A stretch of 64,000 nt of DNA from Moniliella sp. 'wahieum'. Lineage: Eukaryota. How positions within the stretch are numbered: position 1 is the stretch's first letter; each line of letters begins with the position of its first letter. Location of the stretch: the NCBI GenBank assembly GCA_003971905.1, contig RSEE01000045.1, forward strand, positions 372,001 through 436,000, in the 5' to 3' direction. Below, piece by piece: positions 5,997-55,033 of this stretch. The position numbers and the translations under genes are program-made. Under the pieces are notes generated by a model. That model was not told where the DNA came from and made no database searches. It saw only the letters and a list, made by a program, of their open reading frames with translations.

Positions 5997-8566
5997 CTAC
6001 TGGTCTGAGGGTGGTGCTTTGCGTTTACCCAGGGCGATTTTCAACCCGCCTCCCACCGCATCCCCAGAAGATGGAGGGACAGCGGGGGAAGGGAGGGACG
6101 CACTGGAGTGAAGCCTGGCTTGAATGCCGCCGCGGAACCATACTTGCAGTCCCATCCGACGAAGCTGACAGGGGAACGGGGCACGGCAGATGCTTGGTTG
6201 CGTCGCTTTCCCCGTCCCGAGCTCTCCTCACCTAGAACAGGAAGCACATCAGCCGCAGGTTGGAAGACGCCTTGTCCTTGTTCTTGCCTTTGGCCAGGGA
6301 TGGCCCCTCCGCCGGGGTAACAACCGAAGTAGTGCCTTCGGGGCGACGGGCCGCCTCGGAGGAAGCCAACGCACTAGCCCCCAAATCCCAATCCTGTGGA
6401 GCATTCCCCCTACCCACGACACGACGAACCATGTGCGCCTGTCCAGTACGCTGCGCTCGCATGTTAAAGCGGTGGCCAGGCCCGAGGGGGTATCACCTGC
6501 AGCCATGCGCTGTTGTCGGAGCTGAAGCTCGCGCTTGCGCATGGCGCGCTCTTGCGCCTTGAACCCTGGGTTGGTTCCATGGAATTTGTGCGACAACTCC
6601 TTCCATGCCTCTTGGCGTTCAACTCGCGACCGAAGGAATCGTGGTACTTGAGCTCAACATTGGGGTTGTAGTCGGCGAAACGCTGCATGGCCATTTGGCC
6701 CATAAGCGCCTCACGTTCCCGATTTTCCCGCTCACGGGTGGCCTGGGTCTTGCGATCACCGAGCATTTTACTCCTCTGCCGCTCCCTCCTCCTCCCGCGC
6801 TTCCATTTTACGTTGGGTCAACCAGACATCTTGTTGCCGCTGAATTTTCTCCTTCTCCAACTGCTCCGGTGTCATGGTGTCGAGCGCGTTCGAGTTTCGC
6901 AACAAGGAAAGCGTTGCAGCCAACCCACGACTTACCAGGGGCTCCTCCTTCGTCTCCGGATCCTCGGCTTCTGTTAGTTCGGCTGCGTCAGCAGCATGTG
7001 CTTGGGAAACAGCCTCCTCAGCCCCCGCTGGGCATTGAGCTCCCTCTCGACCTCGGCCATATCGACGTCTGGCTCATCTTCCTCGGGGATGGTATCGACA
7101 CTACGCAGGCCAGAGGCGCTCTCCTCCGTCTTGATTCGCTCTAACCGACGACGACGCGCGTCGGCCTCAACTTGGTCCTGCTGAGCTTCCTCTTGGCGAG
7201 ATCGAAGATGACGAACAAATTCCGAGGTGGCATCGAATGTCACTTGTCCCCCTTGGTCTTCTTGTTTGACCTCTACACCCCCGAGATCATCAGGAACAAC
7301 CGACTGGATGCCCCCGGCCAACTGCGCAGCCTCCTCCTCGGCTTTCTTTTGCGCTGCCAAGTTTTTGGCGATCATCTCGGGCGTCGTCTTGGTGATAACC
7401 TTCTTGGCCTTATGACGTCGAGAGCGGGCTAAGGCTACAGACAATTCGTCGTCGTCAACAAAGTTGTCATCTTGTCCGCCGGAAGCACGGGACCGAGCGG
7501 GAAGAACTGCAATGTCCAAATCCATGGCTTCGCCTTGTGGTTCCGACCCAGCTGGGTCATCCAACTCGTCCAAGCGGACTTTGGTCGCCTTGCGCTTCTT
7601 CTTCGGCTTTTTAATCTTGAACCCGGGCTCGCCGGGCTGCAGGTAATCCGACGCCAACTGAGTCTTGTCGTAGCTCAAGTCCACCAGAATTTTGTTGCGC
7701 GCGGCCGCGGCCTGCTCGTGCTGTTTCCTCCGCTCTTCCGCCCGGTCAATCGCAGGGGTGGATCCGAGACAAAGCCCTTGGGTTCCTCCGTCTCCACCAG
7801 CATGCCATCGCGGTCCAAATCGCCATCGTACTTGCTGAGGACACCCGACTTGCGTGACTGAGAAACAGGCGCAGGAAGCGCATCGTTCTCAAACTCATCG
7901 TCATCGAGACCCGTATACTTTTGCGCCCCCTTGGCCCGTTCCAAACGGATCTTGTCCCGTTCATTTGAGCCAGTGAACTTTCTACCAACTCATCGTCCCC
8001 ATCGTCCAACACATTCGAGTCTTTCAGAGTCAATGTCACCTCTTGTCCTTCGCCACCCAGGCGGGACCGCAGGTCCTCCAGATCATGAGCGACTCGCATG
8101 CCCAACACATCCTTCTCCCCATAGGTGCGTTGCAAGGCGCGCACCGCCTCGGCCTCAGCTTCTTCCCGTTCTTTGGCTAAGCGTTCAGCATTGATCTTGG
8201 CTCGCTTGCGTTGCTGTTTGAGCCACTTTTTCGCCGACGCCTCTTCCGTCTCGGGCGCTGCGGGAGGGGCTGCCCCAGCGCCCGTGTCATCATCCCCAAG
8301 GGTGGGACCGGCGAGGCGCTTGCCCAGCTCCCGGCGGTCACGCAGTTTCTGTAACCGGGTGCGAGTGTCTTGTTCTTGCCGATTCCTCCTGTCCTCCTCA
8401 CGTTTCCGGCGGTAGTTGTTTCGGCCTCGGCGTCTTTGTTTGGTGGCGGCTGCGAGCCGTCGTCGGCGGGGGGTGCAGGCTTGGATTTGGCCCGGTCATC
8501 CACAAGAGGCTTGAGACCGAGCTGAATGCGCAGCTTGTTGGTTTCTTCTAATGATATGGACTCCAT
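5997..8566 (-). CDS. SNU66: U4/U6.U5 tri-snRNP protein Snu66/SART1, multiple frameshifts
   Basis: N-terminal HIND motif MESISLEETNKLRIQLGLKPL, plus LTLKDSNVLDDGDDEL, QLASDYL, NFVDDDEL and YNPNVELKYHDSFGRELNAK...LSHKFHG. Confidence 0.92.
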
Positions 8567-9890
8567 GTTGACAGTGAGCCGTAGTGCTACCCCCCTGGTG
8601 GTGGCGGTTGGTGGTTGGTGATCCTGATTTTTGGATGTGCTTTGGGCGACGCGGTCGAGGTGGCTGGACCAGAGCCCAGTCACTTATTACATGAGCGGAA
8701 GTGGGCGCTCGTTCCGCCCTGCGTTTGTCCCGGACACCACATCACATGTGCCTGCCATCACACTGCGCGTGCTGCGGTCGGTGCAAAGGCGGAATCATCG
8801 CAGCGCCAATTTGCAATGTGCTCAAGCTGGAGGCGGAATGGGGATGCATGGCATGGTGGATGGTTTGCGTGCGGTGACATGTGTGATGTCCCCCACCGCT
8901 GCTCTCTCATTGTGGTCTGCCCGCTGCATGGCGGAGCTGTCCAGCCAGTCCGTCTGGCGCACGCACAGACCCTTCGTTCCCCCATCCACTGCTTCGCTCA
9001 TTAACATTGCGTCGGCCATCCCTTTCCCTCTACGATGGTCCTGCACTCTCCTCCCGCCGGCGGCTCCACCCTGCCATGGGACAAGCAGGTGCCTCAAAGC
9101 ATCTCCCGCAGCTGTGGCCACAGTGACCATTCAGGGGAACCAAGCCGGCAGAGCTCGAGGGGAAGCGGACTACCAGCCCGATCCCACGAGGCGTGTGCAT
9201 GCGCATGAACTACGCCCCAGCCGTTCTGATCTACCATCCGTGTCCAGTGGGCCTATGAGCGCACCTAGTGTTCGATGGCAGGCATGATGCATGACATGCG
9301 TGGCAAGTGTGGCAGGGAGACCAATGGCTAGTAAGGGTACAAGCTGAGAGGATGGAGAGAAGGGCATGGCGCAAGCAAAGGAAAGCAAACATGCGCTAGA
9401 CCACGGGTTTGGCGGTGCAAGATGCGGTGGGATAAGGCCTCAGGGCAGTGCGTACTTCCCCCACCGCCACCGCCACAATGGCGGTGGGAAAGGACGACGA
9501 GGCCGAGCAGATTCCCGCGGACGACAGCGAGGGCGCGGGACAACACAAGGGTTGAGGTTGAGACAGAGTGAATGAAAAGAATGGGTGAATGAGTTCAACT
9601 TGAACACCCAGCCTACCCTGCCTCCCTCCACCCAGAAAAGCAAGACTGGGTAGCGGCAGGCAGACAACGCATTCCCCGCCATAGGATCATGGTGGCCACC
9701 CTCTTTGACCCCATGAAAGAAACGGGGATAAATATAATGCACTGTAGACAGGATGTTGCGCTGGAAGGATGAAGAGCAAGGTAGGGGGGGAGGGAATATC
9801 GCATCGGCACTGGTAGATATAGCTCGGCCAGACCGATATACAAAAGGGGAGGAAAGGACAGGCAAGGCAATCGACTCATCCACCACGGCA

Positions 9891-14087: not shown

Positions 14088-17000
14088 CTACTCCATTGCC
14101 ATGGGAGGGGAGGGGAGGAGGGGACTGGAGGGGGCGTGGTGGCGCTTCCCAGTCACGGGGGAAGTGATCGAGGCAGGATCGGGCGAGGTAGGAGAGGGCG
14201 GAAAGCGTGCGTCGTCGTCCCAGGCAGAAATCTGGGGAACCAAGGGAGACGATGCCGGTTCCGAAGAGGCAGGCACCACGTCCAGCATCCGATGCCCCTC
14301 CTCTGATCCACCACCAAGTTCACGCCTGTGCCGTGGCCGGACGCGACGACGGGCCGAGCGTGCTGCGCCCTCCTCGTCGGCCGTGCCGGACTGGGACAAA
14401 CGCGAGGCGTCACCTTTTTGGAGCTCGGCAAGGAGCGTCTCGGCCAAGATGGATGTGGATTGACGGTTCGCAGCCTTGAGCGCCGACATGGCCGGCATCT
14501 CTGGCTCGTTGCCTTCAACAGGCGGGGCCGGCTCAGCAAGACCAGAAGTTGGCGCACCCATTGAATAGGACGGCAGCGTCGGCGGTACCGAAGGTGCGGC
14601 CGGATCCGAAACCATTGTCCCCGACACGTTGGATGCAAGTGACCGAGCCGAGGCGTGACGGCGAGCCTTGCGTCTATGCCGGCCGGAAGGTCCACCCGTC
14701 TGCCGCAAATGACCCAACAGCGACTCGAGCAATTGCCCATCCTCCGACGCAGCCGATTCCTTGCGCTGCAGAGCGAGTTGGCGTTCCTTCTCTCTCTCTT
14801 CTGCCAGCGCACGGCGCTTGTCCTCCAGCTCGCGCTGCTCGTTGATCAGAGCATTATCCTTCTGCGCCTTGCGGTACGAGGCGACAAATTCGCGGAAAAT
14901 GCCAAAAAGTCCTCGGTGCGAAGCAGTTGCTGGGCCGGAAGCCACGCCGACGCGGGTCCGGACCCTCCCCATAAAACCGCAACACATCCGCATAAATCCG
15001 TTCCGACTTTTGCACTTGGTCGCTCAGTCGGCTCAGCTCTTCAGACGCAGTCTGCAGGAAAGGCAGCATCAGGCGCGCATATGGATCGGCCACAGTTTCC
15101 TGATTCTCAAGATGCGGTCCAGCTCCCGCTTGTGTGGTAGCTGCCCGACTTGAGCTCGGCGAGCTCGCGCTTGAGATCCAGCAATTGCACTAAAACAGCC
15201 CGGTTGAGTCAGAGGAAAAGAAATACACGACAAAGGGGGAGAAAAAAGAAACCAAAAAACGTACCTCGGCACGCCGCCGCTGGCGCCTCGAGCTCGATGA
15301 GGAAACTCTCTGTCTCGGGGAAACACTGGTGCACGGAGCGCTCAACAAAGTGCAGCAAGGGTGCCATCAGCAGCTTTCGTCGACAAGCTTGTTGATGGAC
15401 GAGATCTTGAACCCAAACGCACCCCCTTGGATGCCGGTTTGCGTTGAGAAAGTTGCCCATGGTGAGAATGATGTGAAGCAGGCGGGAAAAGTGAGGCGCA
15501 TGCATCAACTGTTCGGCGCCGGTACGAATCTTGAGCTGGTAGACTCGATCAGGTCGTACGTTTCGCGATAGCGAGAGTAGTAGAGCAATCCCTGCACCTT
15601 TTCCTGAGGTGAGGCACGGTCATCAAAGAACCACCAATCGATCCGCAGGGTGCAGCAGCAGCAATTGCTCGTTCGACGCATTGCGGTACTCACCCAGCTG
15701 GCCTTTGGTCTCGCTCTCAGGATAGTGCCGCAGCAGTTCGGACAGAAAGCCTTGGTCCAAAATCGAGGGGCGACAATGGGTAATGTCGTCAGCCACTTCC
15801 TCGGGCGTAGCATGCTTGCTGTCCGTGATACGAGACTTGACCCGGCGCAAGATGAGCTCGATGCCTTGCCGTGTCTGGAGGGAGAGGTGACTGGTCAATT
15901 CCACCTTGGGCTTCTTGGCCGTGGCAAGAGCCTTCTTGGGCATCTGAGCGGCGGAAGTCCGATTCCATCACTTGGAACAGGCCCGACGATTTGAGAGCCT
16001 GGGCCAGCGCAAGCTCATCCACATCCATTCCCTCGCTCTGGCCCCAAATCGTCTCGGCAGCATGAGCGGGGGGCAGCTTGTCCCATTGCAGCTGCTTCAT
16101 CCGTGCGCTCGCCATCTCCAACACCTCTTTCCGCCTCAGCATCTCCCGCATCATCGCCGAGTCAGGCGGGGGGGGAGGTGCAGCGGGGCCAGCCATCCCA
16201 CGGGGGCCCATGTACGAGTTGCGCATGTTGAGCACCGAATCGCGCATCCCATTCGCGGCCGCGTGAGGCGACGCGGGCGAACGCGGCAGCGCCGAATTGG
16301 CCGATGGACGAAGACCAGCCATTCCGCCCATCCGGCCAGTGCAACGTTCAACGGGGGTGGCGGTGGAGGCGGCGGCGGAGGAGGAGGGGCATCATCCCCA
16401 GCAGCGGTCGTAGCCAGTGAAGAGGGGAGCGGCCCGGGCGGTGGTGGTGGTGGGGGAGGTGGGGGGGGAGGGGGAGAAGAAAGTGGCGATAATGATGGAA
16501 GTGGTGATGAGGATGGGATGGGGATGGGGATGGGGATGAGATGGAGATGGGGGCAGCAGGAAGCAGAACGAGACTCTGGCCTCAATGAGTGCAGGCTCCG
16601 ACTTGTGTGCAGAGGGTGGTTTAGATCCAGGGTTACGCACGCTTCCGGCCCAGGAGTAGGTGTCAGCGCGCGTGCGGAAGAAAGGGCGGGCTCGGGACGA
16701 GGGGTAACCGCGGGCTCGGATCCAGGCGTAAATGCAAGACCCGACTCCATCTCCGCTTGAGCTGGGTCTCAAGCTCAGGCGCATACCCAGGCTCACTTCC
16801 AGGTCTGGCAGCAGACTGAGACGCGTGCGCCGGAGCCCAGTCTGGAGCAGAAGAGCGCATGGCGGGAGGAACGGCAGAAGAGGCAGGAGAGGAGACGTCT
16901 CTGGCCCCTCGGTCCCGATGGCCAAGGTAGGTGTGAGAGTCGGCACGGCGCTGTGGATGCTGGCGCCGACGGACGGCGAGCGACGCTGGATTGGTCCCCG

Positions 17001-20000
17001 CTGGAGGTAGTTGTTCTCCCCGGGAGGGGCACGGGGAGGCTCGTAGGCGGTAGCTCTTCGCGCCGGGGAGGAGGGCGAGAGAGAGGACGACCGATGGGAC
17101 GCTGGCTCTCCAATCCGGCGCCTGCCCGGCGGGGCGAAGCAGCGAAAGCGATGCCGGAGCACGTGTCGGGGACAAGGAGTCTGCCACTGCGAGCTGAGAA
17201 GACGAATGGGGAGCCGCCTCGCAGGGACAAGAGAAGGCGCCAAAGTGGGAGACGATGTCGACCTCTGCGACGATTGGCGCGAGAGCGAAGGAATCTCGTT
17301 CCAGCTCAAGGAAGGGTTGGTGGCACTTGGTGTTACTCCCGTTCCCGCCCTGTCATATGCCGACGCCATTTCACGCTCCATGCGTTCGCCAGCAGGAATG
17401 GTCGGCGTAGCTGAGGCAGCTGATGCAGATGCGGGTGGTGATTCTGGCACGGGCATGGGCAAAGATGCTGGTGATGGTGCTGAACCTGGCGCTGGCCTTG
17501 GCGCTGAAGTAGGGGCGTGACCAAGTGGCCTGAAGTGGACCGGGACGTATCGATCTTGTGCTGTCAACGGGCACGGCCACCTGAACTGCGCCCTCAGCTT
17601 CGGACAAGGACGAGCGGTCGGGCGTGTGTTCTGCCTCGCGGTCTGGCAGACTGGGGTCGGAGTAGGACGCGACTGCGCCCGAGGGCGTACGGGAAGAAGG
17701 GTCTGCGGCAGCAAGAGAGGGGGCTTCAGACCGTTGGCGCGCTTTCAGCCTTGCTTCGCGTGCGCCCGCCATGCGCGAGCCCATGTCGGCGTTCGAGGCA
17801 GGCGACGAGCCAGGGCAGCCTCGATCTGGGTGCGGACCTGCGCGGCGGCAGCGCGTCCGAAGGCGAGTCGGGGGCCTGCGAAAACGTCAAGTGTCCCTCG
17901 GACGAGGGCGTGAGCAGCGCCGCTGCACCCAGCTCGGCCGCACCATCCTCGCTCGCCCCGTCCACCTCGTACCTCGTTTCTGGCTCGCTTCCTCCTCCAC
18001 CGTCGGCTGAAGACGCTCGGCCTGCCTTGCCTCCTCCAGGCCGGCGTGAGCCATAGGAAGCCCACCCGACGTGCGCACACTCTCCTCCCCATTGGCCCAG
18101 GGTGGGAGCCCGGTCCAGACGCCGAGCCAGCGACAGAGCTCGAGCCCACCACCGAGCCCGAACCCAACCCCGAACCTGATCCCGAACCCGATGCCGACCC
18201 TGGCCTGCGATGACCACGTTTGGACGTGAGGATCTTTTCCGTCCGAACACGCTCGACTTGCTTGCGCAGCGCATCCTCCATCTTGCGAATCAACACGGGC
18301 GTATCCTCCCGCCCATCGTCGGGGGTATGGTGGATGGGCCTGTTGGATCAACTGTTGAGCCTCCCACAGCTGCACCTCCAAGTGCGCGCACCGATCAATG
18401 AACGCTTCTTGCATCTGCGCCGCATCCAGCTCAAGTGCATCCTTGTTCTCCCTTGCCAGGACAGGTCGGCCTCGAGCTGCGCGACGCGCTTGCGCAGCTC
18501 AGCAAGTTCCGACGCCAGCTCCACCGTCTCTTGAGCCAGGGACCGATCCACCGTGGCCAACTCCGCGCGGTAGCGCGCGGAGTCGGACCGCGTTCGTCCA
18601 CGGCCTGGTCCTTCCCCGACGTGGGAGGCAGCACGGGCCACCGGATCGGCCTCCTGGTCCGCAGCTGCACAGGTGCGCGTTGGGACAGGCGCGCAAGGCG
18701 CTGCGAGGCCACCTTGAGCTGGACTTGGAGGTCCTTTTGGATGACTCGGCCTCGCTCAGTTGCGCTTGCAGCTCATTCCGTTCGGAGCGGAGGGTATCGA
18801 GCTGGCCTTGGTCTTCAATCTGCTGCACGAGCTTGTTGACGCTCAAGCCTACCGTCGAGGCGAAATCGTTCCCACGGAGGAACTCGCCCTTCTCATCCAT
18901 CGCAACCGCCGTGACGAGAGAATCGATGAGCTTGTACCGCGTGGCCAGGCCTCGGGGTCCTGTTGGATCAAGAGCAGATGCTGGAGGGCAGAGAGGAAAA
19001 AGTCGTAGGCGCGGGACCTTCGACCTTGCTCACGATTGCCTTGAACACGTCCACCGGGTCCGACAGGTCGCCACCCTGCAACAGCCCGCCCTCGCAGCTC
19101 TCGTTGAGCTCCTCCAGATCGGCCGCGCGCCAGCCTCAAACACCTCGATCTGCTGGTCCAGATCAGGGTACTTGAACGCGCGCAGCTTGATGAGAATCCG
19201 TTGCAGGCCCGACGCGTCCAGCTGGTTGCGCAAGTGCACGCGCACTTGGTAGTCGGGCGCAATAGCAGGATGCAGAATCGCATTGATGAGGAACATGGTG
19301 TTGACCGCGTACTCGTTGAGTGTTGTTTCGTGCGACGCAGCACCCAGTCGAGCAATTCGTGCGACGCGCCCACCAAGCTGCCCATCTTGCCCGCCCATCG
19401 ATCGTGCGCTCCAGCACGCTCATCCACGCATCGAACCGGCCATGCGTGCCCTCGCTCTGGCGAAGATCATCAAACCCGCGCAGCACAAGTTGCTGCCCTA
19501 AGGTTTTTCCCAATGGCACAAAAACAACAAAATGTCGGCCACCTGCCGACGCGTGGGAAGGTGGCCGACGTTGTGGAGGCCACAATGCTCGATACACACT
19601 TGGGTTGTCGAAGCGCATCGTTCGCGCCCGGACGCGAGTTGAACAGCGCACGGAACGCCTTGAGCACCCCAAACTCGAGCCGAATGTCAGCTTCCGTCTT
19701 GAGTTGCTTTTGGTGCAGCGTGGCCAGCAGCTGGCCCAGCGTCGCCGTGCCCTCGGCATGCACAAACTCGTCGATCCAGCCCATGGCGCACGTGCGCAAG
19801 GTCACAGCCAACGCTTCCAGGTCAGTCACGGTCACTTTGCCATCCTGGATGCGGCGGATGAACCGTTCGGGCGAGGAACGGGTACTTAAGCCGGTCCCTT
19901 GGCCTTGGTGGCCCTTGCTGGGGGTCGACGTGGTGGTAGCCGGAGCGGCGTGGCGGCGCGTGCGAGCCGCGTGCCACTCGGTGAGTCGGTCGTTGTACAC

Positions 20001-21277
20001 GAGCGACCACTTGTTGTCTGTGCTCATGGCCATCATGTTTTTGCTCGAAGACGCGCGCCGCCACCTTCCAGCAGATCCAGTTTCTCAACCAACTCCTCAA
20101 ACATGCGCTCTACCGTCGCCTCATCCGGACGTTCCATGTAAAACTCGGCTGGGCCAGAGCGAGTGACAGTTTCCTTCATCCCCGCTAGAGTGGGCAGAGC
20201 ACCCGACCCACTAGCAGCGCGCGGGGGAGGCGCATAGGGTCGATTTGGGTTGGAGGAGTTGGGCTCGATGGATCGGCCAGCGAGGAGCCAGACAAGGAAG
20301 GTCCGGGAAGGTGTGGTGCGCTTGGCCTTTGTCTTCACTGGTGGCAAGTCAGGTTCAGAAAGAGTGAGGTGCAGGGGTAGAGAGTGGACCGCGGGGAGAG
20401 AGATGCTGGCAGAGGCACCAACCGGAGAGGCACTGCTCGACAGGGGGGGGAAAGGACCCAGTCCCACTGGTGTCGCGGCAGAGGATGGGTGCCCAGTGCT
20501 GGCCAAAGGACTGGGCAAGGCCGGGTTGCTGCCGCTGACCGTCATCGGGTGAGGGGACGAAGAAAAGCCATTTCCGGCAGACACGCCAAGTGCGCCGCGG
20601 GAGGGTGGGAACAGAAGGGGAAGCCGACGAGCAGAAGAACGGCGGTTTGGCACACGTCAGGCCCTGGGGAACAACACTTGGCTTGTATCCCTCTGTGTGG
20701 ACGAGGCAGCGGTGTGGAAGGGTGGGGGGTGTTGGTGTGGTGGTGGTGGTGGCGGCGCTGAAGAGAGGAGACGAAGACTGCGACCCGAGCCGTTCGTGGG
20801 CGTCGCGGCCAAACCCAAAGGAAGACGCGGCGAGCGTTTGAGATGAGGATCCAGCCGAGGTGCGCGACGAGGGGTGAGCGGCATGGCGCGCGGCCCACTC
20901 GGCCTCGCCTGGCAGTGGTGTGGTGCCAGACGCAGAGGAGATGGGCTGAGAAGCAGGGGTGTCAGCAGGGTGGCCTACGCAGAGAGCGGAGGATGGGAGA
21001 GCGCAGGACGCACAGTAAGGTTGCCGTACAAGACGGAATCGCGCGAGAAGCCGGTATGGCCGGTCAGGGTGGGGGCGGAGATGTCGTGGACTGTGTCCCA
21101 AAGGCGCGTGGGCGGGGGCGGGAGAAGAGGGAGGTCGGGGGCGGGGCGGCGGGGGGGAGCGGGGCGGCGGCGGCGGGAGGGGGAGAGGGAGGGTGCGGGC
21201 AGCTCGGAGTCGGGCTGGTCGTTGGATGGGCTGGGCGCGGCGCCTCGTGGGCGGCGGCGGTCAAAGAGGGACTTCAT
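14088..21277 (-). CDS. BNI1: Diaphanous-related formin (GBD/FH3, FH1 poly-Pro, FH2); intron 15190-15264, many frameshifts
   Basis: GBD region VERMFEELVEKLDL...KWSLVYND...LAVTLRTCAMGWIDEFV; FH3 region QVRVHLRNQLDASGLQRI; poly-Pro at ~16350-16470; FH2 motifs MKQLQWDKLP...TIWG, LLHIILTMGNFLNA and VLRFYGE. The start codon is approximate. Confidence 0.92.
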
Positions 21278-40260: not shown

Positions 40261-41859
40261 ATGTGGTTCCCTTGGGCTGCGCTGCTCGTTGTTGCCGCTT
40301 CCGTCAGGGCGACTCAGCTTCCCTTTGTGTCCCGCACCGATCCGATCCGCATCGAGCTGGGCGGCGTGGCGACGGAACAAGCTGATGGCCGCTCGGTGCG
40401 GGAACGCATCGCAGCAGCGACGATGCTCACTGGCACCCATGCCATCTTGACTCACCCCGACGTCCCAAGTGAGCGTGCGCATGAAGCGGATCCATGCTGG
40501 TAGCAACACCACCTCTGCAGGATCAAGTGATCCCGAAGCCTTTGTGACGAGGGGCGTGACGAGCGGGAGTGGGTACATTGATTCGATTGATGGCAAGTCG
40601 TGTTCTTTTACTTTTTCGAGTCCCGTACCAATCCCTTGAAGGACCCGTGCTGCTCTGGACCAATGGCGGCCCAGGATGCGCTCCCAATGGGTCTTTTATG
40701 GAACTGGGGCCGTGCGCATCACCCCGAGTCCAAGCACCGTTCAGGACCCCCGATCAACGCCACGAGTACAACCCCTACTCGTGGAACGAGCGGGCCAACA
40801 CCATCTTTATCGACCAGCCGGTGGCGTGGGCTTTTCATATTCGCGGTATGGGATTGAGGGGGCGAGAGCGACACGGGAGCCAAGGATGTGGCTCGGTTTC
40901 TTCAAATCTTCTTCGGCGTTCCCCGAGTTTCATCAGGCTGCCAGCGAGGCAGGTTTCATCTTGCGGGCGAGTCGTATGCCGGCCGGTACCTTCCTGTTTT
41001 GCGGCGGAAATTGTGGACCGGAACCGGGCAGTGGAGGAAGCAGCGTGGCGGGCCGGAAAGGAGGTCGACCCCAAGAAGCTCATCCCTCTCGATTCGGTCC
41101 TCATTGGCAATGGACTGACGGATGTATCGACCCAGTTCCCCTCGTATTATGAGTATGCCTGCACTCGCAACAATGGCTTGCACAGCCCATCTTGGACATT
41201 GCCTCCTGCACCCGGATGAAGGTAACGGCCGAGACGTTGTGCCGCCGATCTCACTCAACATTGCTCTGTCTCCTACAACCCTGACCGTTGCACCAATGCG
41301 GCAACAATTTGCGAATCCGAGCTGGCAGAAGCCTTCTTTGCCACGGGCCGCAACCTACGATATTTCGGACCCTTGCCGGTCTGGAATCGAGACGTTGTGC
41401 TACAGCATCACGGACGACATTAGTCTCTATCTTGATCGGGAGGACGTGCGGGAACTGGTGGGCGCCGAGCCGATTGGGTCCATTGGCCATTTCGCATCCT
41501 GCAACGGGCGTGCTCACCGAGTTCTACCGAAACCGCGACCCGTTTGTGGACAATCGCAGGTACATTGCGCTTCTTCTCGAGTCGGGGTGAGAATTCTGAT
41601 CTACAATGGTGATCTCGACTTTTGGTCAACTATGTCGGGCATCAAAAGTCCGTCGACACACATGGAGTGGAACGGCCAGGACGCCTTCTGGCCCAGCCGC
41701 TGAGAGGAGTGGATCGTATGGATCCCCTGCTGGAAAAACGCGCTCGGCGGACGGCCTGACCTGGGCAACGGTGTACAAAGCCGGGCACATGTCCCGTGGG
41801 ACAAGCCTATTGAAGCCCAAGTTATGCTCCATCGCTGGCTGGCCAAGCAAGACCTTTAA
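40261..41859 (+). CDS. PRC1: Serine carboxypeptidase S10 (carboxypeptidase Y-like), frameshifts
   Basis: Signal peptide MWFPWAALLVVAASVRA, FYFFESR..P..DPVLLWTNGGPGC, FIDQP, catalytic GESYAG, ILIYNGDLD and TVYKAGHM. Confidence 0.93.
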
Positions 41860-45292: not shown

Positions 45293-47747
45293 ATGATCAG
45301 CGGCCTCGCCGAGTATCTGCACGACGCGGGCTGGTCAAGACCGTGCCCCTCGATGCGCTCGCCCACACCCGCCTCGGCCTCGACCTCGCCGTCTGGGTGC
45401 GCGCCGTGCTCGCCGAGCAGCCCGAGCCACTGACTGCCGCCGTCGGCGGCCTGCCCCTCGCGCTCGCCGAGCGCATCTCCCACCACATCGCCACCCTCCA
45501 GCGTGCCCTCGTTCTGCCCGTCGCCGTCATCCCGGGCATGGCCCCTGTCCGCTCCTACCCGCCCTTCAGCCACACCGACCACCGCCCCGCCGACCGCGCC
45601 AGGGCGTGGGAACTGTACGAGGCCCACGACCTCCCTGCCGCCACTGCCGCCTTTGCCCAGTCCAACTCCCTCTCCCCCCAGGACTTGGTTCGCACCACAC
45701 TCAAGGCATTGCGGGTCCACAATGTTCCTTTCCTTACAGCCCCCTTTCTGGCAGCGGCCCAGGTACGTCCTCTCCCCGTCCCGCGCCTGCGCTGCTGACC
45801 CTTGCTCGTCGCAGCTGGCCTACCTGGAGCGCCACCCCGCAGGCTTCATCCATTCCATGTACGGCAACGAGACACTGCTCATGTTTGACGGAGTGGAGCG
45901 CGTCATCACCTCGATTGATCTAGAAAAGAAGACGTTCAGCTTTGTATCCAAGGCTGCCGTGCTATCGGAGCTGAAGTGCAGCTCGGACGAATTTTTGGAT
46001 GCTTGCATTCTCTCTGGCTTTGAACACTGCCCTACATTCCCCCCCCTGTTGGATGGACCCCTGGCACAAGGATCTCCGCCCAGGGTCACCCCCCCTGCGG
46101 TCGTCGCCTTGGTCAGTACCGGGGCGGACAAGCGGCTGTGACGACCCTCGGTGGGGGGCCTAGCAGGGCCAACATCTACCTGGACTCGTTCTGTCGTGCT
46201 CGCTCGATGATCAAATTTTCACTTATCTTGTCCGAGGACGGCAAGGTGCTTCCGCTTCCTGTGGCCATTGGTCGGCCGCAAGGGAAGAGAAACGATGCTC
46301 GTCGTGCCGGCTCGGCGGTCGAGGGCGCGGGCGCGCACACCACGAGTCCGGGCAACCCTCCTGCGATTCGATTGGGAAATGGAGTTCTTGCGCCCACGGC
46401 GAGCCCGCTTCCTGAAGTACCTTCGGATTTGCATGAGATTTTCTTCAATCGGTTGCCGGACGAGATTTATACCCACCTGGCTCGCGGCTTGATTGGTCCG
46501 CAAATTTACCACTCGCTCTTGAGTGGCCAGTGCGTTGAACTGGAACCCCTAGAGGGCGGTGCGCTGCCCGAATACCACCACTTTGTTCGGCACACGTTGT
46601 TGGAGACCCACAGAGTCCCAAGTGTGTCAGCCTTGCCTTGGCGCGACCCAGCTCTCGGAGTACTGGAAGAACCGACGGGTGGCCGCCTTGTATTGGTTTG
46701 ATCCACGACATGCTCATGAGCTCAAATGGTCTTGCAACGAGACCCAAGCTCTCCTCACCCGCGTTTCTCGCTGGAACGTGCCCGGTAGCACCATCTCTCA
46801 TGCTTTGACCGAGCAACCGTACGGAAGGATTGACCTGCTACTCTGCCTCTGCAACGGCCAACACCCACCGGGCTCAGACTACCATCACGCCCTGGGGGCC
46901 GAATCATGCGCCGCTGAAACGCAAGGACGAGGTGGTGGTCAACACGCGCTTCCGTCTGCTGGAACTCAGGGGGTTTGTCAACCACGAGCACCTCCACACC
47001 GAGCTAGGTCGGGCTCTGTTTTGGCCATCAAGGAATTGCACGTCAACGACCCGCTGCAAGAACCGTTGTATGTGGCGTTGGAGTTGGTGCGAGCGTATGT
47101 GCTGCATTCGCGGTACTTTAACCATGGTCACAACCGTCTTCTCGGGCGGCCCGGCCCTTGAGGCGATTGATGGCGTGGGCGACAAGGCGCTGGAAGAAAT
47201 CGGCATCTGCTCCTGGTGATGCGAACCATGTCGTTGGTGCCCATGACCTTCTTGCCACAGAGTTGGGATGCGCCCTTGTCGCGGGAACTGTTGGCGTTCC
47301 ATGCGTTTGCGCGGGCCATGACGCGCTCCCTGCGCTCGCTAGCGGAAACGATTGCGAGCCATATGCTTGTCTCGGGGGCAGCCAAGTGCAAGGACAACGA
47401 GGTGTTGGGGGCCATTGCGCTCAGTCTGCCCTTCCAGTCCGAGCCCAACACGGGCCTGGGCGTGATTGCCAAGTGCTACACAGAAGGCTTGCTGACCTTC
47501 CTTGGCAAACCGGCGCACCAAGCCGACCCTGACGAGGTGGCGGAAGCCAAGTCGATCTTGGTCTCGATGCTGCAGGGCAACTTCCCAGAGATTCGGGATG
47601 TACGGCTGGAGCTGGTCCGGGGATTCCGCTTCTGCGCGCCCTTTTGGTCGCGGTGCGTCTGCTGGATAAGGAGGGCCAGTTGGACAAGGAGTATGTGCAA
47701 CAGTTTGAACTGGCCGACCAATGGTTGCAGCCCATGGTTTGGTGTAA
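45293..47747 (+). CDS. MKT1: Mkt1 (XPG/PIN-like post-transcriptional regulator); intron 45763-45814, frameshifts
   Basis: RLGLDLAVW, EPLTAAVGGLPLAL, FLTAPFLAAAQ|LAYLE, DEFLDACILSG, VPSDLHEIFFNRLPDEIY, RLLELRGFV and WDAPLSRELLAFHAFARA. Confidence 0.9.
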
Positions 47748-48661
47748 TCACAATGATGCATGGCAGATCTGTGCAGCCGACACAGTCCACAATCCAACTC
47801 TTTCCATATATGTGATTCGTCGTATGGGAAAACAAGGTGGCACAGAAATGAGGGCCACATGTACGTGTGCCGAGGCGAGCGAAATGGGGAGAAGAGAGTG
47901 CTAACCCAACAGAGTACTAACCCAAGGGAATCCAAGGAATGGGAGAAAACCCCATGTGTTGATCTGAACCGAGATGAGGGTGGTGGGAAAAGAATGTTAC
48001 CTGGCAGATATACTATGCGCCTGTGCCCTGCATCGTGCCTACCAAAGTTGCACTGCTGCCAAGGCGTGCTGGGCTCGATCTATCTTCATGCTAGGATCCC
48101 GATACAAATCTGGACCCTTACCACGAGTAGAAAGTACTAAATCCGGATGACGGACAACACAGGGGCCACCTGGAGGAGGGCGGGGGTGCAAGCCTGTCAA
48201 GCCTTCCTTGTTTCTATCCATCTCTATCCCTCTATCCCGGCCAACTTCTTCGTGGGATGGGACCTCTATCGATCGCGCGCGACGGGCGAAAAAAATATGA
48301 GTTGGTTGTGCAGAGCAGGTAAAATGGCGCAGTTCCGGCCAGGTGTTAGGTCAGTGGACATGTGACATTCACATGACAATCAGTAGTGGCTCCAACCTAT
48401 TCCTTCGACCACGAGCCGTAATGTGCATGGGATCTCAGTTCCAGACGCGGACGAGACGGCCTTGTGCATGCTAAGCATGCCCATTGGGACTTCTTCAGCA
48501 AAGTGGATGAGTGGGAAATAAGCAGCGGGGCCCAGGCCGCGTTGGGGACGGACTACGAGCCTGCGTAAGCGCTGAACGCACTGCATTTGATTCGGCAGCA
48601 GGAAGAATGTGATCACAGATGGAGCGAGAGGGCCTGGTACAAATACAGCGTGTGAAGATGA

Positions 48662-51191
48662 TCATGTGCCAGAGTAGCGGTGGGGATACAGCAGGTTATA
48701 CCAAGTAACCAGATCACGGTACAGGGTTAGGTTTAGTCCCGCTCCAAGTTCTCCACCGCCGTCAAAATCTCTCCCAACTGGAGGTGAAGTTTGCGAATGA
48801 CCAGCTGGTCGACCGCATGGATACTTAGGTGCCCCTTGGACTCGCCATCTGCTTCCCGCTCCGGCAGGGGCGATAGGAACGAAGCCGGCGCAGACCCTGT
48901 GGTCGGCACGGGTACCGCCACCGTGGAGGCCGTACTGGCCACCTCGGCTACCCTGCCCAGGGCTGCCCAGGTCGCGCAACTCGAGTTTCATCGCAAACAG
49001 CGCAATCTTGCGTGCATTCACTTCCGACGGACGCCAATCGCCAATCTTGACGTCCAGAGCCAGCTCTGCTCCCGGCCCTTCCAGCCTAAGCCCAACGCTC
49101 CCCCCACGCCCGTGCGCAGCGTTTGGACCGCCTTGGCATAAATCTGCAGCGCCGTGCTAATCAACAGCGTTGCGCTCGTCTGCGCCGTCGGGTTGGAACG
49201 GCACGTGGGGCAGGAGGTCGAGCAGGCACAGCGCTCACTCACCGCCTGCGAAGTGTGGAGCGTAAGTTGGATCGAACGGGCTAGGTCGCCTGTGACAGAA
49301 GGTGTCCGGGCCGTGGCCACGTTGCGCTCAATGCTAATCAGCGCCACCCCAGCATCGCACAGACACGTGCACCCGGTCCATGCGGATTCGGCACACAGTA
49401 CACTTGGCGGCCGTGGCTGTGGTCAGGATCGGCGTGGGCATGACCATGATCATGATCATGCTCCTTGTGGCTATGGCCAGAGCAACCTTGATCGTGAGGA
49501 GGAGGGGCAGGCAGAAGAAGAGGAGAATGAGAATGGACAGCAGGGGTAGAGGGGGACTGGTGTTGAAATAGGCCGGGCGAATCCACAGGGCCAAGGATTG
49601 ATGTATCGTGCTTGATCCGAGCACATTGGGGAGTGTGTCGAGCGGCTGCCATAGCCGCCGCCTGGGCTCCCACAGCGGCAGCTTGGTCCCTTGTGGAACA
49701 GCCAGAACAGCTTGGCCCACCGAGACTGGATACCTTCTTGGAGCAGCACTCCTTGTTTTCCGAGGCGCTGGCTTGGAGCAGCACTCATTGGTTTTTCGGG
49801 GCGCTGGCTTGGAGCAGCAGGCCTTGGGAGACGAAGAGACGGTGGAGGCACTGGCACTTGCACTTGGAGTCGACACGGGTACCAGTTGCGGAGGTAGGTA
49901 ATAGACTTTGCCTTATTACAGCAGTCATCCACACCATTTTCCAACCGGTCCTTCGAGGGGGAGTGTTGGAAGGCAAATGAGTTGGGCGTCGTTGAGGCCG
50001 TACTTGAGGCTGGCGTGAAGTTGGGGCTAGATGCCTTCAGGGGCAAATTCTTGGAAGAGAAAGAGGACAGGTCACCAGGGTTCCACCAGCTAAAGTCAGC
50101 TGGAACTGCATAGGCGACTCGGGGTCAAGAATTGCACTCCCAGCAAGTAATGTTCTGGGTCCAAATCGTCCAGCCAGTCATGGGCCGAGGAAACGGCGGG
50201 GGGAGGCGGCGAAGGATTGAGAGGTTGGGCGGGAAATGGCCAAGCGCTGCTGGGTCCATCGGAAGCAAGGGGACAGGAGGAGTGTGCGAGACAGTTGGGT
50301 AGGTACCGGCTCAGACGGTGTGAAATTGGGTACCAGTGGAATCGACTTGGTTTCTGGCGAGACCAGGTCGTGGCCCAACTGCAACAGGTCCGAACGCTCA
50401 ATCTGTAGCACATCCAGCGAGCGTAGGAAAGCAGCAAGACCCAAGTCATTGGGAAGCGGATGGAGAGGTGGTCTGTGGTACTGGTTCAGTGACAGGGTCA
50501 GATGGGGGTACCACGGCAGCAAGGGAGGGCCAGGGAGTGATAGAATCGTGTGGAAATGGTCCGGGCGGCGCAGATGCAAAACCACTCGAGGTCCCTGTCT
50601 GACTCGTCGGCCAATGGTTTCCGTTGGTGGACGCTTCGGCAGTAACGGCAGATCCAGCGGGCGCCTTGGCACTTGAGATGGGAGACGAGGTATCGGCGGT
50701 GTCAGGCTCGAGCTTGGCTCTAACCTTGGTCATGCGCTTGCGAGGCAAGGGCCCGCCCCATTTGTCCTGCGGGCGCTTACGGGGACGCCCAATCGGATCA
50801 CGCGCGGCTACATGGTGTCAGTGCTGACACAGGGGAAGAAAAGGAGTGCGCACCATATCGACAAGCGACGCCACTGCGCTCGCACCGGAGACAGCCGCCC
50901 TGGCGGCGGAGCGTCCGTCGCACTTGAGCTTGCGGTCGCGGCAGCACTCGCACGCTGCGCGGATGACGAGCCCGCGCTTCACGGCCTCGGCGTGGGAGAG
51001 CATCTGCCCATCAGGGGCGACGAAGCAGGGCGTGGCGGCGGTGGCGGCGGGTTTGGAGGAGGGGGAGGGGCATGTGCACGTGGGCCCACAGCAGCCACAG
51101 GGCTCGTTGGGGGTGGGAGTGGCGGTGGGGGTGGCGGCGGCGGGTGCGGGGGGCGCGGGGGGCTGGTGGAGGCGGCGTCCATGGACGCCAT
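48662..51191 (-). CDS. Zn(II)2Cys6 transcription factor with a Cys/His-rich central region; intron 50808-50853
   Basis: ACECCRDRKLKCDG....CLRCERSGVACRY|AARDPIGRPRKR across one frameshift and the intron. Both ends are approximate. Confidence 0.85.
49738..49820. repeat. About 36-bp tandem repeat (2+ copies) encoding CCSK motifs
   Basis: TTGGAGCAGCA recurs at ~49738, ~49773 and ~49809, with conserved flanking GGCGCTGGC. Confidence 0.8.
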
Positions 51192-51800
51192 GCTGGCAGG
51201 ACGAGCGGTGAGGTCAGCAGCCCCGTCCACGGCTTGCTCCAATGCAGACATCCAGGAGGTGGCGGTGGGCCGAGTCGACGGCAGAGACGAAAGTTGTGGC
51301 ATGTGGGCAGAGGCATAACATTATGCAATGCCCCAAAACGCTCCGAGCCGTCGAGCTCCGCCGCGTCCGCAGCAGCCCTGGTGCCAGTGTTCAAAACGCT
51401 CCGGCCACACTGCCCCTGCGCCTGCAGCCACGCACACAACATGCAACACTTGCCTTATTCATTTGTCATTTCCGCCCCTGAGAACTCACCTCAGGCTCAG
51501 GACTCCACTCAGGGGTACACAGAATGGGTGTTGCTGGTTGCCTTTTAGGGCGAGCCGCCATGTGGGGCCTCATAACCAGCACCAGGGATCGAGTCAAAAG
51601 GCATTATAATCTTGCAGGGCTACCGCCCCCCATGGCAGCGTCTCGCACAGACGACAGATGCATGGCAACGTCTACCGTGAGTACACAACACCCACAGGTG
51701 GTTGGCAGGGCGGAAGCACAGCGCAAGCGCAACGGCAACAGAAAAATAAGAAACAAGAAACAAGAGAAGCAAGCTAGCAGCGCGCGGCCATCGGTCGGGA

Positions 51801-54558
51801 TCAAACGGCCAATTGCAGTCCAAAAAGAAGCAAAAGAGGGAGGGGGGCATTGGCATAGCTGAGAGCGGGATCGGGAAAGCGGACAACGAGGAGCTCGGGA
51901 CTCCGGAGGCGCGGTGCACTTGAGTCGGCAGACCAGAAACGTCTATACGGCATGCTTTGCCTTGGCAATCCACCGGCCATTTTGCCCTTTTTACATCGCG
52001 CCATCTCCAGTGCCTCCTCGCCGCGGAGGACCAGAAAGTCCTGAGCCGCAGCCGGACTGCCCCTCCCGCCCGCAGCATTCGGCGTCCGCACACGCGAGTC
52101 ATGCCCATAGGCATACTCATTGTCCGAATCCCAACCAGCCTCTGCCGCCTCCTGGGAGTCAGAAAAAGCCACGCGGGGCGCACCCGGCGCGTACTTCTCC
52201 GCATCGGTGCGCTTCTTTTTCTTGCCCAAACCCGGATGCGAGCAAATCCTTCATGCCCCGCTTGTCCCATCCACACCGAACCAGCATGGCCGCCCGAATC
52301 GGTCCCGCGCCCGTCAACGGCAAAGGGGTAGGAGCGACGCTCGGCGCTTGGCTCCGGCGTGACGGCGTCGGTGAGCCGCACGTCGGTTTTCCTGTCTGCA
52401 AATGCAGCGCAAGGGCAAAGCTGGGAAACGCAGTAGCATAGCATATACAAACAAGCCGAGTTCCCGCTAAAAGGGGGAGGGGAGATGAACATACTCGCTG
52501 TCGTCTGATCCGTCGATCCATTTTGGCCACCGGGCTGCTGGGCCGCCGCCGCCGCCGCCGAAGGGCTCACGTTCGGGGCCGGGACGGGATAACGGCTCCA
52601 ATATGCTTGAGTCTGGTGCAACAAGTGCGCTGCTCCATGGCCGGAAGCGGATGGAGACGGCCATCAAAGGCCACTGGGTGCAGGCACACGGCAAGTGCAG
52701 CGCTTTTCCACCGCCGGCAGGACCGGATCCCAGTGGGTCCGACGGTTCGCTCAGCCAAGCCAAACCGGGTCGTCATCCAAGCGCCAAAGCTGTTGGTTGG
52801 CCAGGACGAACACACCTGGAGCGCCATCGGTCTCGGCACTCAATAACTGGGTCGTGTTCGACAATTGTTCCGACGCACGGCACATAGATCACGTCCATTC
52901 TTCCCGCGCGGTAGAGCACGGCGAGGCCATTTGACTGGGATGAAGATGCCGCGCGCACAATATCGCCAAGTGCAAAGAGCGCTGCCCACGACAAGCCATG
53001 GTCGCCCACGCTTTCCGATGCAGGGCCTGTGGCTGTGGATGACACAACAGGCGGCAAGAAAGGGGGCGCAAGATCGAGTGTGGTCAAAAACGTTTGTATC
53101 GCCACTGCCGCTCGGGCCCGTTCGTCCGCCTCATTGAGGGTGACCGCCGAGGAGCCTTGCCCTTGGCCGAATTGAACACGGTCCTAAGCTCCGCCAATCC
53201 TTGACCCGAAATTTGTCGCGCAGTCACGTCGGCCTGAGCCACAAACTTGCTCAGCCGATCCACATCGGCAGTAGCCGTGAGGCGCAGAGCGTCAATGGCA
53301 GTCTGATTGGTGGCATCGAGGAGGCCGCCGTGGGCCAAGTCGACACCAGCCATGCGGAAGAGTGCGATCACCCACGGGGATCGGGCAGCTTGGGTCTCGG
53401 CCTGCGTTGTTAGGCGTGGGGCCGGGAAAGCACGCGCATCCGTCAGACTGGCGTTGAGGCTAACGCGGCGAGAGAGGTAAGGAAGGACGCTGAGTGCGTC
53501 TTCGAGAACCAGGCGCGTCGGGGTAGGGTCGTCGCGTCCCAACAGGTACTCCCCCACGAGCGAGAGAGATAGGCATGGTCCACAGCAGGACGGTTCGGAG
53601 GCGTAAGAGTCAGCTCCCCGCGCAGAAGGAGAACGTTGACCAGAGCAACGAGGGGCGTAGCACCAAACTCATTCTGCCGGATCACTTGCCGGTCCGTAAC
53701 ATTCCGTCAGATTGTTGGAAAACGATTCGCTTCACGTCCCACTGGACCCCATGATCGTTGGCGGAGGCTCGTCCTTCTCAGGCGTAGCGGTAGCCACAGA
53801 CGAAATAGGAAGAGGCGCACCTAGTCCGGGCGTCGGGCTAGTGGAAACCGCAAACGGAGACGGGGCCGCCACCGGGGAAACGCCAAATGCGATGAGGAAT
53901 CCAACTGAGATAAATCACCAAATGGAGAGGGTTGCGGGGGCGGTTGAGACAAATCACTAAATTGCGAGGGTTGCGTGGGGTTGAGTCTGTAGATACGGCA
54001 GCTGCTGCTGCTGTTGGGAGACAGGCAGATCAAACGGTGACGCTGAAAACATTGAACTCCCTGACGGCTCTTGGTGAGTGGGCTGGGCAAAGGGGTTCGT
54101 GGCAGCAGATGGGGGCACGAAAGCCTGTTGGCCCTGAGACCCGGCGCCGGTAGAGGAGGCGAAGCCAAACACATCAGCCGAAGGTGCAGGAGGGGAGTGC
54201 AGCGCAGGAGCAGGAGCCGGAGCGGGAGCAGGAGCCGGAGCGGGAGCGGAGCAGAGCGGAAGTGAAGAAGTAGTCCTGGGTTGGGCACCAAAGCTGAGTC
54301 CAGCAAGGTCGTTCGTGAGGGAATTGCTTTGGGCACGGCTGGAGGCAGTGCGAATGGGTTGCTGCCCAAGGTCAGCGAGCCTTGGTCCCCCGGCGAGGCA
54401 AAGGCGGGTGCGGGCGCATGGGCGAAGGCGGCGATGGGCTCGGGGGCTGCAAATGGATTGGACTTGTCATTCCCCGCAGCGTCTGTGGTAGGGACGAAAA
54501 GGGTTGCTGGGGGGGCGCCAGGGCGCAGGAGACGGCAGAACGGATTCGTGCCGCTCAT
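51801..54558 (-). CDS. MINDY-family (DUF544/Miy1-like) protein, apparently catalytically inactive, with N-terminal NPF motifs
   Basis: VIRQNEFGATPLVALVNVLLLRG (cf. xxQNENGPCPLLAxxNxLLL), LFRMAGVDLAHG (cf. LFxxxxIPLxHGW) and GLAVLYRAGRMDVIY (cf. ELxVFFRNNHFST). Probable intron at ~52394-52494. The 3' end is approximate. Confidence 0.75.
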
Positions 54559-55033
54559 CGGCGAGGGAGGGCACCGGTGGGGGGTATATGGTGGTGGGAG
54601 CAGCCCTCCCAGCCCGTGTTGGCCGCGCCGCGTCTGGGTCTCATATGGAGCGTGTACACTGCGCGGGGCTGTGCGTGGCCCACGCTGCATGACGTCACAG
54701 CCAGGCGATGCGAACGTGCGTTCCTGAGGGGTGGCTGCTGTAGTTAGTACTTGGTTGCCAAGCAACGCAGCACACCAGCCAGCCACCACAGCCACCGTGC
54801 CAGACAGAGCATATCCATCATCGATCAGCGCCAGATCAGCGCGATCAGCGTGCCAGTCGCCGCCGCGCGTCACCCGTCATGCGTCACACGTCACCTGACC
54901 GGCCGGACTAACCCTACCCTGAGCCTCAGGAGCGCTACTCGAGCTTTTTGCCCGTAGCTGCTCCCAGTACTCGCCAACACACAAGCCCCATTCAACATGC
55001 ATTAACCTGCGCCCACCTTGCGGCCGCCAACAT

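Follow-up and report, generated by a model that had tools for sequence, protein, structure and literature searches.

A gene on the minus strand of contig RSEE01000045.1 of Moniliella sp. 'wahieum' raises the question of whether a MINDY deubiquitinase (DUB) that has lost its catalytic residues is still maintained, and what it would then do. We analyzed the 64,000 nucleotides between positions 372,001 and 436,000 of this contig (the window; all positions below refer to it), which are GC-rich eukaryotic DNA. The MINDY-like gene runs from about 54558 down to 51801 and its reading frame shifts repeatedly along the way. The explanation that we prefer, with confidence that is about even, is a basidiomycete MINDY-1/2-class pseudo-deubiquitinase with multiple Asn-Pro-Phe (NPF) motifs, likely acting as a docking protein.

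Several searches placed the domain in the MINDY family. The Pfam profile MINDY_DUB (PF04424) matched the open reading frame (ORF) piece 53443-53706(-) with 36.2 bits (cut-off 27; profile positions 14-70) and the next piece, 53084-53668(-), with 23.7 bits (profile positions 80-156). A read-through of the gene, i.e., a script-joined translation with X at each break, scored 52.9 bits against a local hidden Markov model (HMM) built from 20 canonical MINDY domains, and hhalign on the same read-through gave 98.5% probability with an E of 2e-15. By phmmer the sequences nearest to the read-through were three basidiomycete homologues: P0026 from Armillaria novae-zelandiae (367 aa; 58.3 bits), P0030 from Microbotryomycetes sp. 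(629 aa; 37.7 bits) and P0034 (34.7 bits). A tblastn search with P0026 yielded four collinear high-scoring segment pairs (HSPs) with a joint E of 2e-12. These results support a predicted MINDY-1/2-class fold, in agreement with an earlier note on this locus, made by a model from the letters alone, which had recognized a MINDY domain here. The domain is read as follows:

52757..53777, minus strand: MINDY-like domain in five frame segments (Pfam; tblastn with P0026, P0030 and P0034; local HMM; hhalign)
53777-53703, minus strand: domain segment 1, frame 2
53700-53569, minus strand: domain segment 2, frame 1
53566-53159, minus strand: domain segment 3, frame 0
53156-52881, minus strand: domain segment 4, frame 2
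52879-52757, minus strand: domain segment 5, frame 0

Three codons of this domain align with the catalytic triad of the family:

53656..53658, minus strand: ACG, Thr at the catalytic Cys137 position (phmmer against PDB, tblastn, MAFFT)
52899..52901, minus strand: AGA, Arg at the catalytic His319 position (tblastn, MAFFT)
52796..52798, minus strand: AAC, Asn at the position of Thr335, the third triad residue (preferred alignment)

The Thr and the Arg had already been read at the Cys and His positions in the earlier note, and both assignments held. In the phmmer search against PDB, QNEFGATPL was paired with QNENGPCPL of MINDY-2 (6z49), so that the T falls on the catalytic C; the C-to-A mutant 6z7v has Ala at the same position, tblastn with P0026 agreed, and the equivalents of G135 and P138 flank the Thr codon in the same frame and at the family spacing. 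For the His position, the fourth HSP of tblastn paired LVALYRNLHLSVLY of P0026 with LAVLYRAGRMDVIY of the window (52994-52884), the phmmer alignment to P0030 continued across an insert common to both and reached the LVTD strand and the VW motif, and a 16-sequence MAFFT alignment also put Arg at His319. We therefore accept the Arg, since the basidiomycete homologues back the alignment of the note; its codon is flanked in frame, at the family spacing, by conserved R at -3, V at +3 and Y at +5. ACG and AGA are each three base substitutions away from TGY or CAY, i.e., these are multi-base changes and not indels, again as the note had it. Another candidate His box, DLCAVRRNN (frame 1, 52890-52864), lies 10 codons downstream with its His codon on a frame break; its RRNN resembles FRNNH, but it was ruled out by the basidiomycete homologues; a block HMM did not separate the two boxes (1.8 bits for the AGA reading and 0.7 for RRNN, reached by 2 and 6 of 300 shuffles, respectively). 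An FL/GL/His block at 53280-53130, proposed by the frameshift-aware aligner and MAFFT, was made unnecessary by the collinearity of the tblastn HSPs.

Residues were numbered via mammalian MINDY-1 in the 16-sequence L-INS-i alignment, where 13/13 published positions agreed with the numbering of the papers. The window protein reads there:

Q131 (oxyanion-hole Gln): Q, kept
N134: F
P136: A
C137: T
V210: L, which also occurs in basidiomycete homologues
W240: G, not found in the basidiomycete homologues
Y258: V, not found in the basidiomycete homologues
F315: Y, which also occurs in basidiomycete homologues
H319: R
S321: D
T335: N (also in the phmmer alignment to P0030)
D336: Q

N134, P136, C137, W240, Y258 and H319 were kept in all nine homologues shown. 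The third triad residue is only probably replaced, because two alignments disagree: that of 120 sequences pairs the TD of the family with an ETD 10 codons upstream instead of with the AAC codon. According to passages of PMC4942677, C137A, H319A and Q131A/E abolish activity, V210, W240, Y258 and F315 line the pocket for ubiquitin L73, and yeast YGL082W is inactive although its catalytic residues are kept. Passages of PMC8550791 describe the triad as Cys-His-Thr, with activity impaired by N134A, reduced substantially by T335V and abolished by S321D and T335D. The window protein belongs to a DUB family and lacks the catalytic Cys and His, which makes it a predicted pseudo-DUB.

Metagenome contigs scanned with a degenerate canonical Cys-box pattern gave 116 loci, each with an ORF bearing the canonical motif. 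A profile (A2), made by aligning 13 of these ORFs with two window pieces, gave 298 matches, and all homologue counts in this text rest on the best 120 of these. The Cys and His motifs were both present in 119 of the 120, the exception being a 194-aa fragment; divergent dead forms could be among the rest of the 298. Searches with pieces of the gene itself returned little. No close relative at ≥35 bits was found by phmmer with a 194-aa window piece against 1.84 billion representatives, the only match, a repetitive protein of 4641 aa (P0001), being judged spurious. The Cys-box piece found no relatives in word-index searches and, in a metagenome scan, matched 598 patterns of which 0 were confirmed. 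The ESM Atlas held no usable match to the window protein, and short single-frame pieces around the His box had no matches in Pfam and PDB.

The MINDY-like gene is interrupted by at least five one-base frame errors. The best-placed breaks are in the domain:

53700..53703, minus strand: frame break 2 to 1, near GGAAT
53566..53569, minus strand: frame break 1 to 0, within CTCTCTC
53156..53159, minus strand: frame break 0 to 2, placeable only to within 53087-53183
52879..52881, minus strand: frame break 2 to 0, by a gain of one base or a loss of two

A single missing base explains three of these four. As a control, 270 of the 286 window ORFs of ≥110 aa were scanned against Pfam, and other genes were found broken in the same way:

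6252-8683, minus strand: SART-1/Snu66, split over frames (Pfam scan)
15212-20084, minus strand: formin (GBD, FH3 and FH2 domains), split over frames (Pfam scan)
40560-41700, plus strand: S10 carboxypeptidase, split over frames (Pfam scan)
46024-47812, plus strand: MKT1, split over frames (Pfam scan)

In the first of them, positions 485-555 and 554-583 of the SART-1 profile fall in two ORFs (6467-6817 and 6252-6653) that overlap and differ in frame, with two more SART-1 pieces upstream. The splitting of these four genes indicates that one-base errors are frequent in the assembly, and we infer that the frame breaks of the MINDY-like gene are assembly errors like those in its essential neighbors.

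Whether the gene is maintained was judged from its stops, codon usage and divergence. There were 0 stops in 338 homology-anchored codons vs 18 in 686 codons of the other two frames (2.6 per 100), a count that is partly circular in that stops helped to position the breaks. Trained on six Pfam-supported pieces, a codon-usage score tracked the homology-derived frame order. A quick maximum-likelihood tree was made from 45 rows (the window protein, 29/29 homologues outside the main ascomycete group and 15/90 inside it, the other 75 being omitted); in it the end branch of the window protein measured 5.53 changes per column, the median being 0.19 and the next longest 2.07; P0026, P0030 and P0034 were again nearest to it, here by path. 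The window protein kept 32 of the 78 columns conserved at ≥80% and 22 of the 39 conserved at ≥95%, with an overall identity of 22% (median) to 28%. The lack of stops in the anchored codons despite so long a branch favors a maintained pseudoenzyme over an old pseudogene, so that the gene is probably still coding.

In front of the domain lies the region that contains the NPF motifs:

54556..54558, minus strand: putative start codon ATG (MSGTNPF...), frame 1 translation
53778..54555, minus strand: N-terminal low-complexity region of ~260 codons, in frames 1, 0, 1, 0 and 2 (three-frame translations)
54538..54546, minus strand: NPF 1 (GTNPF), frame 1
54497..54505, minus strand: NPF 2 (PSNPF), frame 0, directly after a C7 run (a G run on the plus strand)
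54451..54459, minus strand: NPF 3 (KSNPF), frame 1
54352..54360, minus strand: NPF 4 (GSNPF), frame 1
54089..54097, minus strand: NPF 5 (ATNPF), frame 0

An in-frame ATG further upstream, near 54690, may be an alternative start; the ORF of the upstream neighbor stops at 54877-54879. The four NPF motifs of the earlier note, plus a fifth in the adjacent frame beside the G run, are thus all present. Across all six window frames (127,996 codon positions) there are 13 NPF motifs, five of them inside a 450-nt stretch of this gene and eight elsewhere. S or T precedes the motif in 5/5 copies of the window gene, and Eps15-type EH domains prefer (S/T)NPF. The codon-usage score followed the same frame order across 53778..54555, and four of the five copies fall in frames that it favors. 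NPF 2 is probably real if the length of the C7 run was miscalled, which would bring the motif into frame. With NPF motifs so clustered, the window protein is a predicted ligand of EH domains, and the NPF region and the domain would belong to one protein.

The same N-terminal region has two further repeats:

near 54250-54200, minus strand: (PA)n run inside the low-complexity region
54040-54026 (SPFDL, frame 0), 53964-53950 (QFSDL, frame 1) and 53925-53911 (PFGDL, frame 1), minus strand: repeats of the F-x-D-L type

The (PA)n run is a perfect Pro-Ala repeat, APAPAPAPAPAPAPA, at 54200-54250(-), and its other frames read as Leu/Arg or Ser/Gly/Cys repeats. The three F-x-D-L repeats follow the NPF cluster and precede the MINDY domain; PFGDL is presumably similar to adaptor-ear-binding motifs.

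The earlier note was aware of no description of its architecture, an inactive MINDY fold with NPF motifs; this calls for a correction, as the pairing of NPF with MINDY is not unique to the window gene. An N-terminal NPF was present in 41 of the 87 listed fungal homologues with ≥150 aa before the Cys box, against 2.7 predicted by residue shuffles, and in 0/120 listed homologues did an NPF lie C-terminal to the Cys box. The usual form was (E/S)TNPF(R/L/K), then R/K (homologues P0029-P0119; loci L010, L013, L018, L033 and L075). One copy was usual, with two in 4 of the 87. Cys and His were intact in 41/41 NPF-bearing homologues, and 40 of these had a CaaX-type end. The ancestral layout in fungi therefore seems to run from a disordered, TNPF-bearing N-terminus through the MINDY domain and a motif interacting with ubiquitin (MIU) to a CaaX end. 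The window gene departs from it in its five NPF motifs, dead active site, weak MIU-like match and lack of a clear CaaX. The NPF-MINDY pairing is therefore an ordinary, apparently undescribed feature of fungi, and what is new in the window gene is the catalytic loss together with more NPF copies.

Downstream of the domain we read:

52396..52419, minus strand: MIU-like motif FALALHLQ, frame 1, with a basic stretch then in frame 2
51801..52250, minus strand: final open frame (frame 2), closed by a stop at 51801-51803

Homology and codon score conflict around the MIU-like motif (path 52750-51800); the coding score is high as far as ~52100 and falls beyond. CLWA-stop (52113-52099, frame 1) is the sole CaaX candidate and might represent an alternative end; chance alone predicts one such match. 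Just beyond the presumed stop, frame 0 is open for a hydrophobic stretch of 23 residues, LLLLFLVSYFSVAVALALCF (51720-51850, minus strand); it may be a tail anchor, and is probably untranslated in view of its pyrimidine-rich DNA and low coding score.

Four other explanations were weighed against a maintained pseudo-DUB. The gene may be a dispensable relic, i.e., a MINDY gene or duplicate that lost its function and is drifting, with frameshifts that are partly real and NPF motifs left over from the ancestral architecture. The long end branch, the 32/78 conserved columns kept, the replacement of nine functionally tested or invariant positions, the five or more frame breaks within ~1 kb and the lack of a close relative in phmmer would all suit a relic. 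Neutral drift over such a branch is, however, hard to square with an anchored reading without stops; the essential neighbors are broken by the same kind of frame break, codon usage matches the homology-derived frames, NPF motifs have risen to five where loss would be expected, and more than half of the columns conserved at ≥95% are kept at a much lower overall identity. We consider the relic unlikely, though still worth serious attention. A different objection concerns the unity of the gene: a small NPF-rich protein could be followed by a separate dead MINDY-like gene starting near 53780, as suggested by stops in all three frames and coding scores near zero between 53960 and 53730. Overlapping open segments nevertheless give an unbroken path through this interval, no obvious ATG-led start lies immediately ahead of the domain, and the homologues have a contiguous NPF-bearing disordered N-terminus (87/120 with ≥150 aa before the Cys box, NPF in 41 of these), which makes two genes improbable.

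Two further explanations would keep the protein active, and we give both very little credence. According to passages of PMC10919355 and of PMC12037411 (on USP53/54), some proteins labeled pseudo-DUBs later proved active, and the oxyanion-hole Q131 is kept here, so the protein might still be an enzyme through other residues, e.g., another nucleophile, or on a different substrate. Against this, the nucleophile and the general base are replaced, as is probably the residue that orients the His; Arg at the His site plus Asp at S321 resemble no arrangement known from thiol or Ser/Thr proteases, S321D is by itself enough to abolish the activity of MINDY-1 (passages of PMC8550791), and the ubiquitin L73 pocket is degraded as well. 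Least credible of all is that the Cys/His loss is an artefact of assembly and the true gene an ordinary active MINDY deubiquitinase. The assembly does contain many indels, and a TGC triplet in another frame overlaps the Thr codon; yet both codons differ from TGY or CAY at 3/3 bases and are framed by conserved residues in the same frame at the family spacing, and with seven further invariant positions changed the pattern is not one that indel noise can produce.

Several observations weigh against the maintained multi-NPF pseudo-DUB that we prefer. The gene rests on a single error-ridden assembly, and its very long branch is also compatible with relaxed constraint. The C-terminal half of the domain is weak alone (1.8 bits, reached by 2/300 shuffles), and its frameshift-aware alignment, at 14.0 bits, was not significant against a shuffled-codon null of 11.7 ± 1.6 (maximum 16.3). 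Continuity between the NPF motifs and the domain needs read-through of several breaks in low-complexity sequence of low coding score. The earlier note had pointed to orthologues sharing the Cys/His loss as a check; none with the same substitutions turned up in phmmer, word-index, metagenome or profile searches. No clear CaaX end was found in the window gene, vs CaaX in 109 of the 120 listed homologues. An MIU motif was present in 104 of the 120, and FALALHLQ scored 23.2 bits in a frameshift-aware alignment to an HMM of these 104 MIU regions, about 2.5 standard deviations above the null of 39 other tiles (15.2 ± 3.2, maximum 28.5), one of which was higher; the match is suggestive. Finally, W240 and Y258 are lost, which speaks against binding of the ubiquitin tail. 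Both residues belong to the L73 pocket, and we therefore doubt that the dead domain binds ubiquitin; the one feature that speaks for ubiquitin binding is the weak MIU-like motif. The proposal of the note that an inactive MINDY fold had been reused as an endocytic adaptor therefore stands in part: a dead domain does lie behind an NPF-rich tail, and its reuse as a ubiquitin binder is in question.

Known systems were compared with this gene. MINDY-1 and MINDY-2 (FAM63A/B) and yeast Miy1 are K48-specific DUBs (PF04424; 5jkn, 6z49) of the same family as the window protein by HMM and BLAST. The window protein shares with them the QN..G..PL.A..N.LLL pattern, the oxyanion Gln, collinear FL, GL, His-box and VW blocks and, possibly, an MIU-like motif after the domain. 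It differs from them in lacking Cys137, His319 and probably Thr335, in the replacement of N134, P136, W240, Y258 and S321, and in having five NPF motifs and no clear CaaX end. Its nearest sequences by phmmer and tree path, P0026, P0030 and P0034, keep Cys, His and Thr, have a CaaX end and no NPF, and sit on end branches of 0.6-1.2 vs 5.53; the window protein, P0030 and P0034 have in common an insert that separates the His box from the LVTD strand. Long Pezizomycotina MINDY proteins (e.g., P0058 and P0101) have, like the window protein, a T/S-preceded NPF in a disordered region N-terminal to the domain, and differ from it in that a single NPF, an unimpaired active site and a CaaX end are usual among them; they form a separate clade, well set apart. 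Pseudo-DUBs in general have a DUB fold without catalytic residues, as here, and are known regulators; the known pseudoenzyme of the MINDY family is human MINDY4B, of the MINDY-3/4 class. NPF-bearing EH-domain adaptors (Ent1/2 and Yap1801/2 type clients of Ede1, Pan1 and End3) likewise carry several NPF motifs in a disordered region, whereas the window protein lacks an ENTH/ANTH or other membrane-binding module and has a dead protease domain as its folded part. The EH domains of Pan1, End3 and Ede1 recruit endocytic proteins (passages of PMC3279396). The Sla1 signal NPFx(1,2)D (passages of PMC2199253) fitted 0/5 NPF motifs of the window gene.

In the mechanism that we propose, the papain-like MINDY fold would be retained, while the residues for cutting ubiquitin chains, namely Cys137, His319 and probably Thr335, together with N134 and P136 of the Cys loop and W240 and Y258 of the S1 pocket, are gone. 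The disordered N-terminus with its five (S/T)NPF motifs would dock the protein onto EH-domain endocytic proteins of the Ede1/Pan1/End3 type, where the dead domain, no longer an enzyme, would serve as a scaffold or a competitor. The C-terminal MIU-like helix may still be able to bind ubiquitin. Both the EH binding and any ubiquitin binding are predictions from sequence.

The presence of TNPF ahead of the domain in many active fungal MINDY proteins suggests that endocytic EH-domain proteins recruit these K48-specific enzymes, and this by-product of the analysis possibly carries more weight than the window gene itself. Such recruitment fits the description of Miy1 as a prenylated plasma-membrane deubiquitinase in passages of PMC11847538. 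Tentatively, and with less confidence than in the explanation of the window gene, we suggest that fungal MINDY-1/2 DUBs are generally clients of the EH network via a conserved and so far unnoticed N-terminal (S/T)NPF, and that in this lineage one was turned into a dead multi-NPF scaffold, which would occupy or organize EH-domain sites, possibly read ubiquitin through its MIU-like helix, and no longer trim K48 chains at the membrane. Literature searches found no report of a fungal MINDY-1/2-class pseudoenzyme, and a full-text search found none of MINDY together with 'NPF motif'. Among the matches listed, the literature on EH domains, Ede1 or Pan1 made no mention of MIY1, nor were NPF motifs and EH domains mentioned in the available passages of the top-ranked paper on MIY1 and endocytosis. 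Until the locus has been re-sequenced and its expression shown, the window gene is of limited value.

The stretch 50818-51320(-), none of whose ORFs had a Pfam match at E up to 1e-5, belongs to the downstream neighbor. This neighbor has a proline-rich start, followed by CECCRDRKLKCDG, which we take to resemble the fungal Zn2Cys6 DNA-binding motif.

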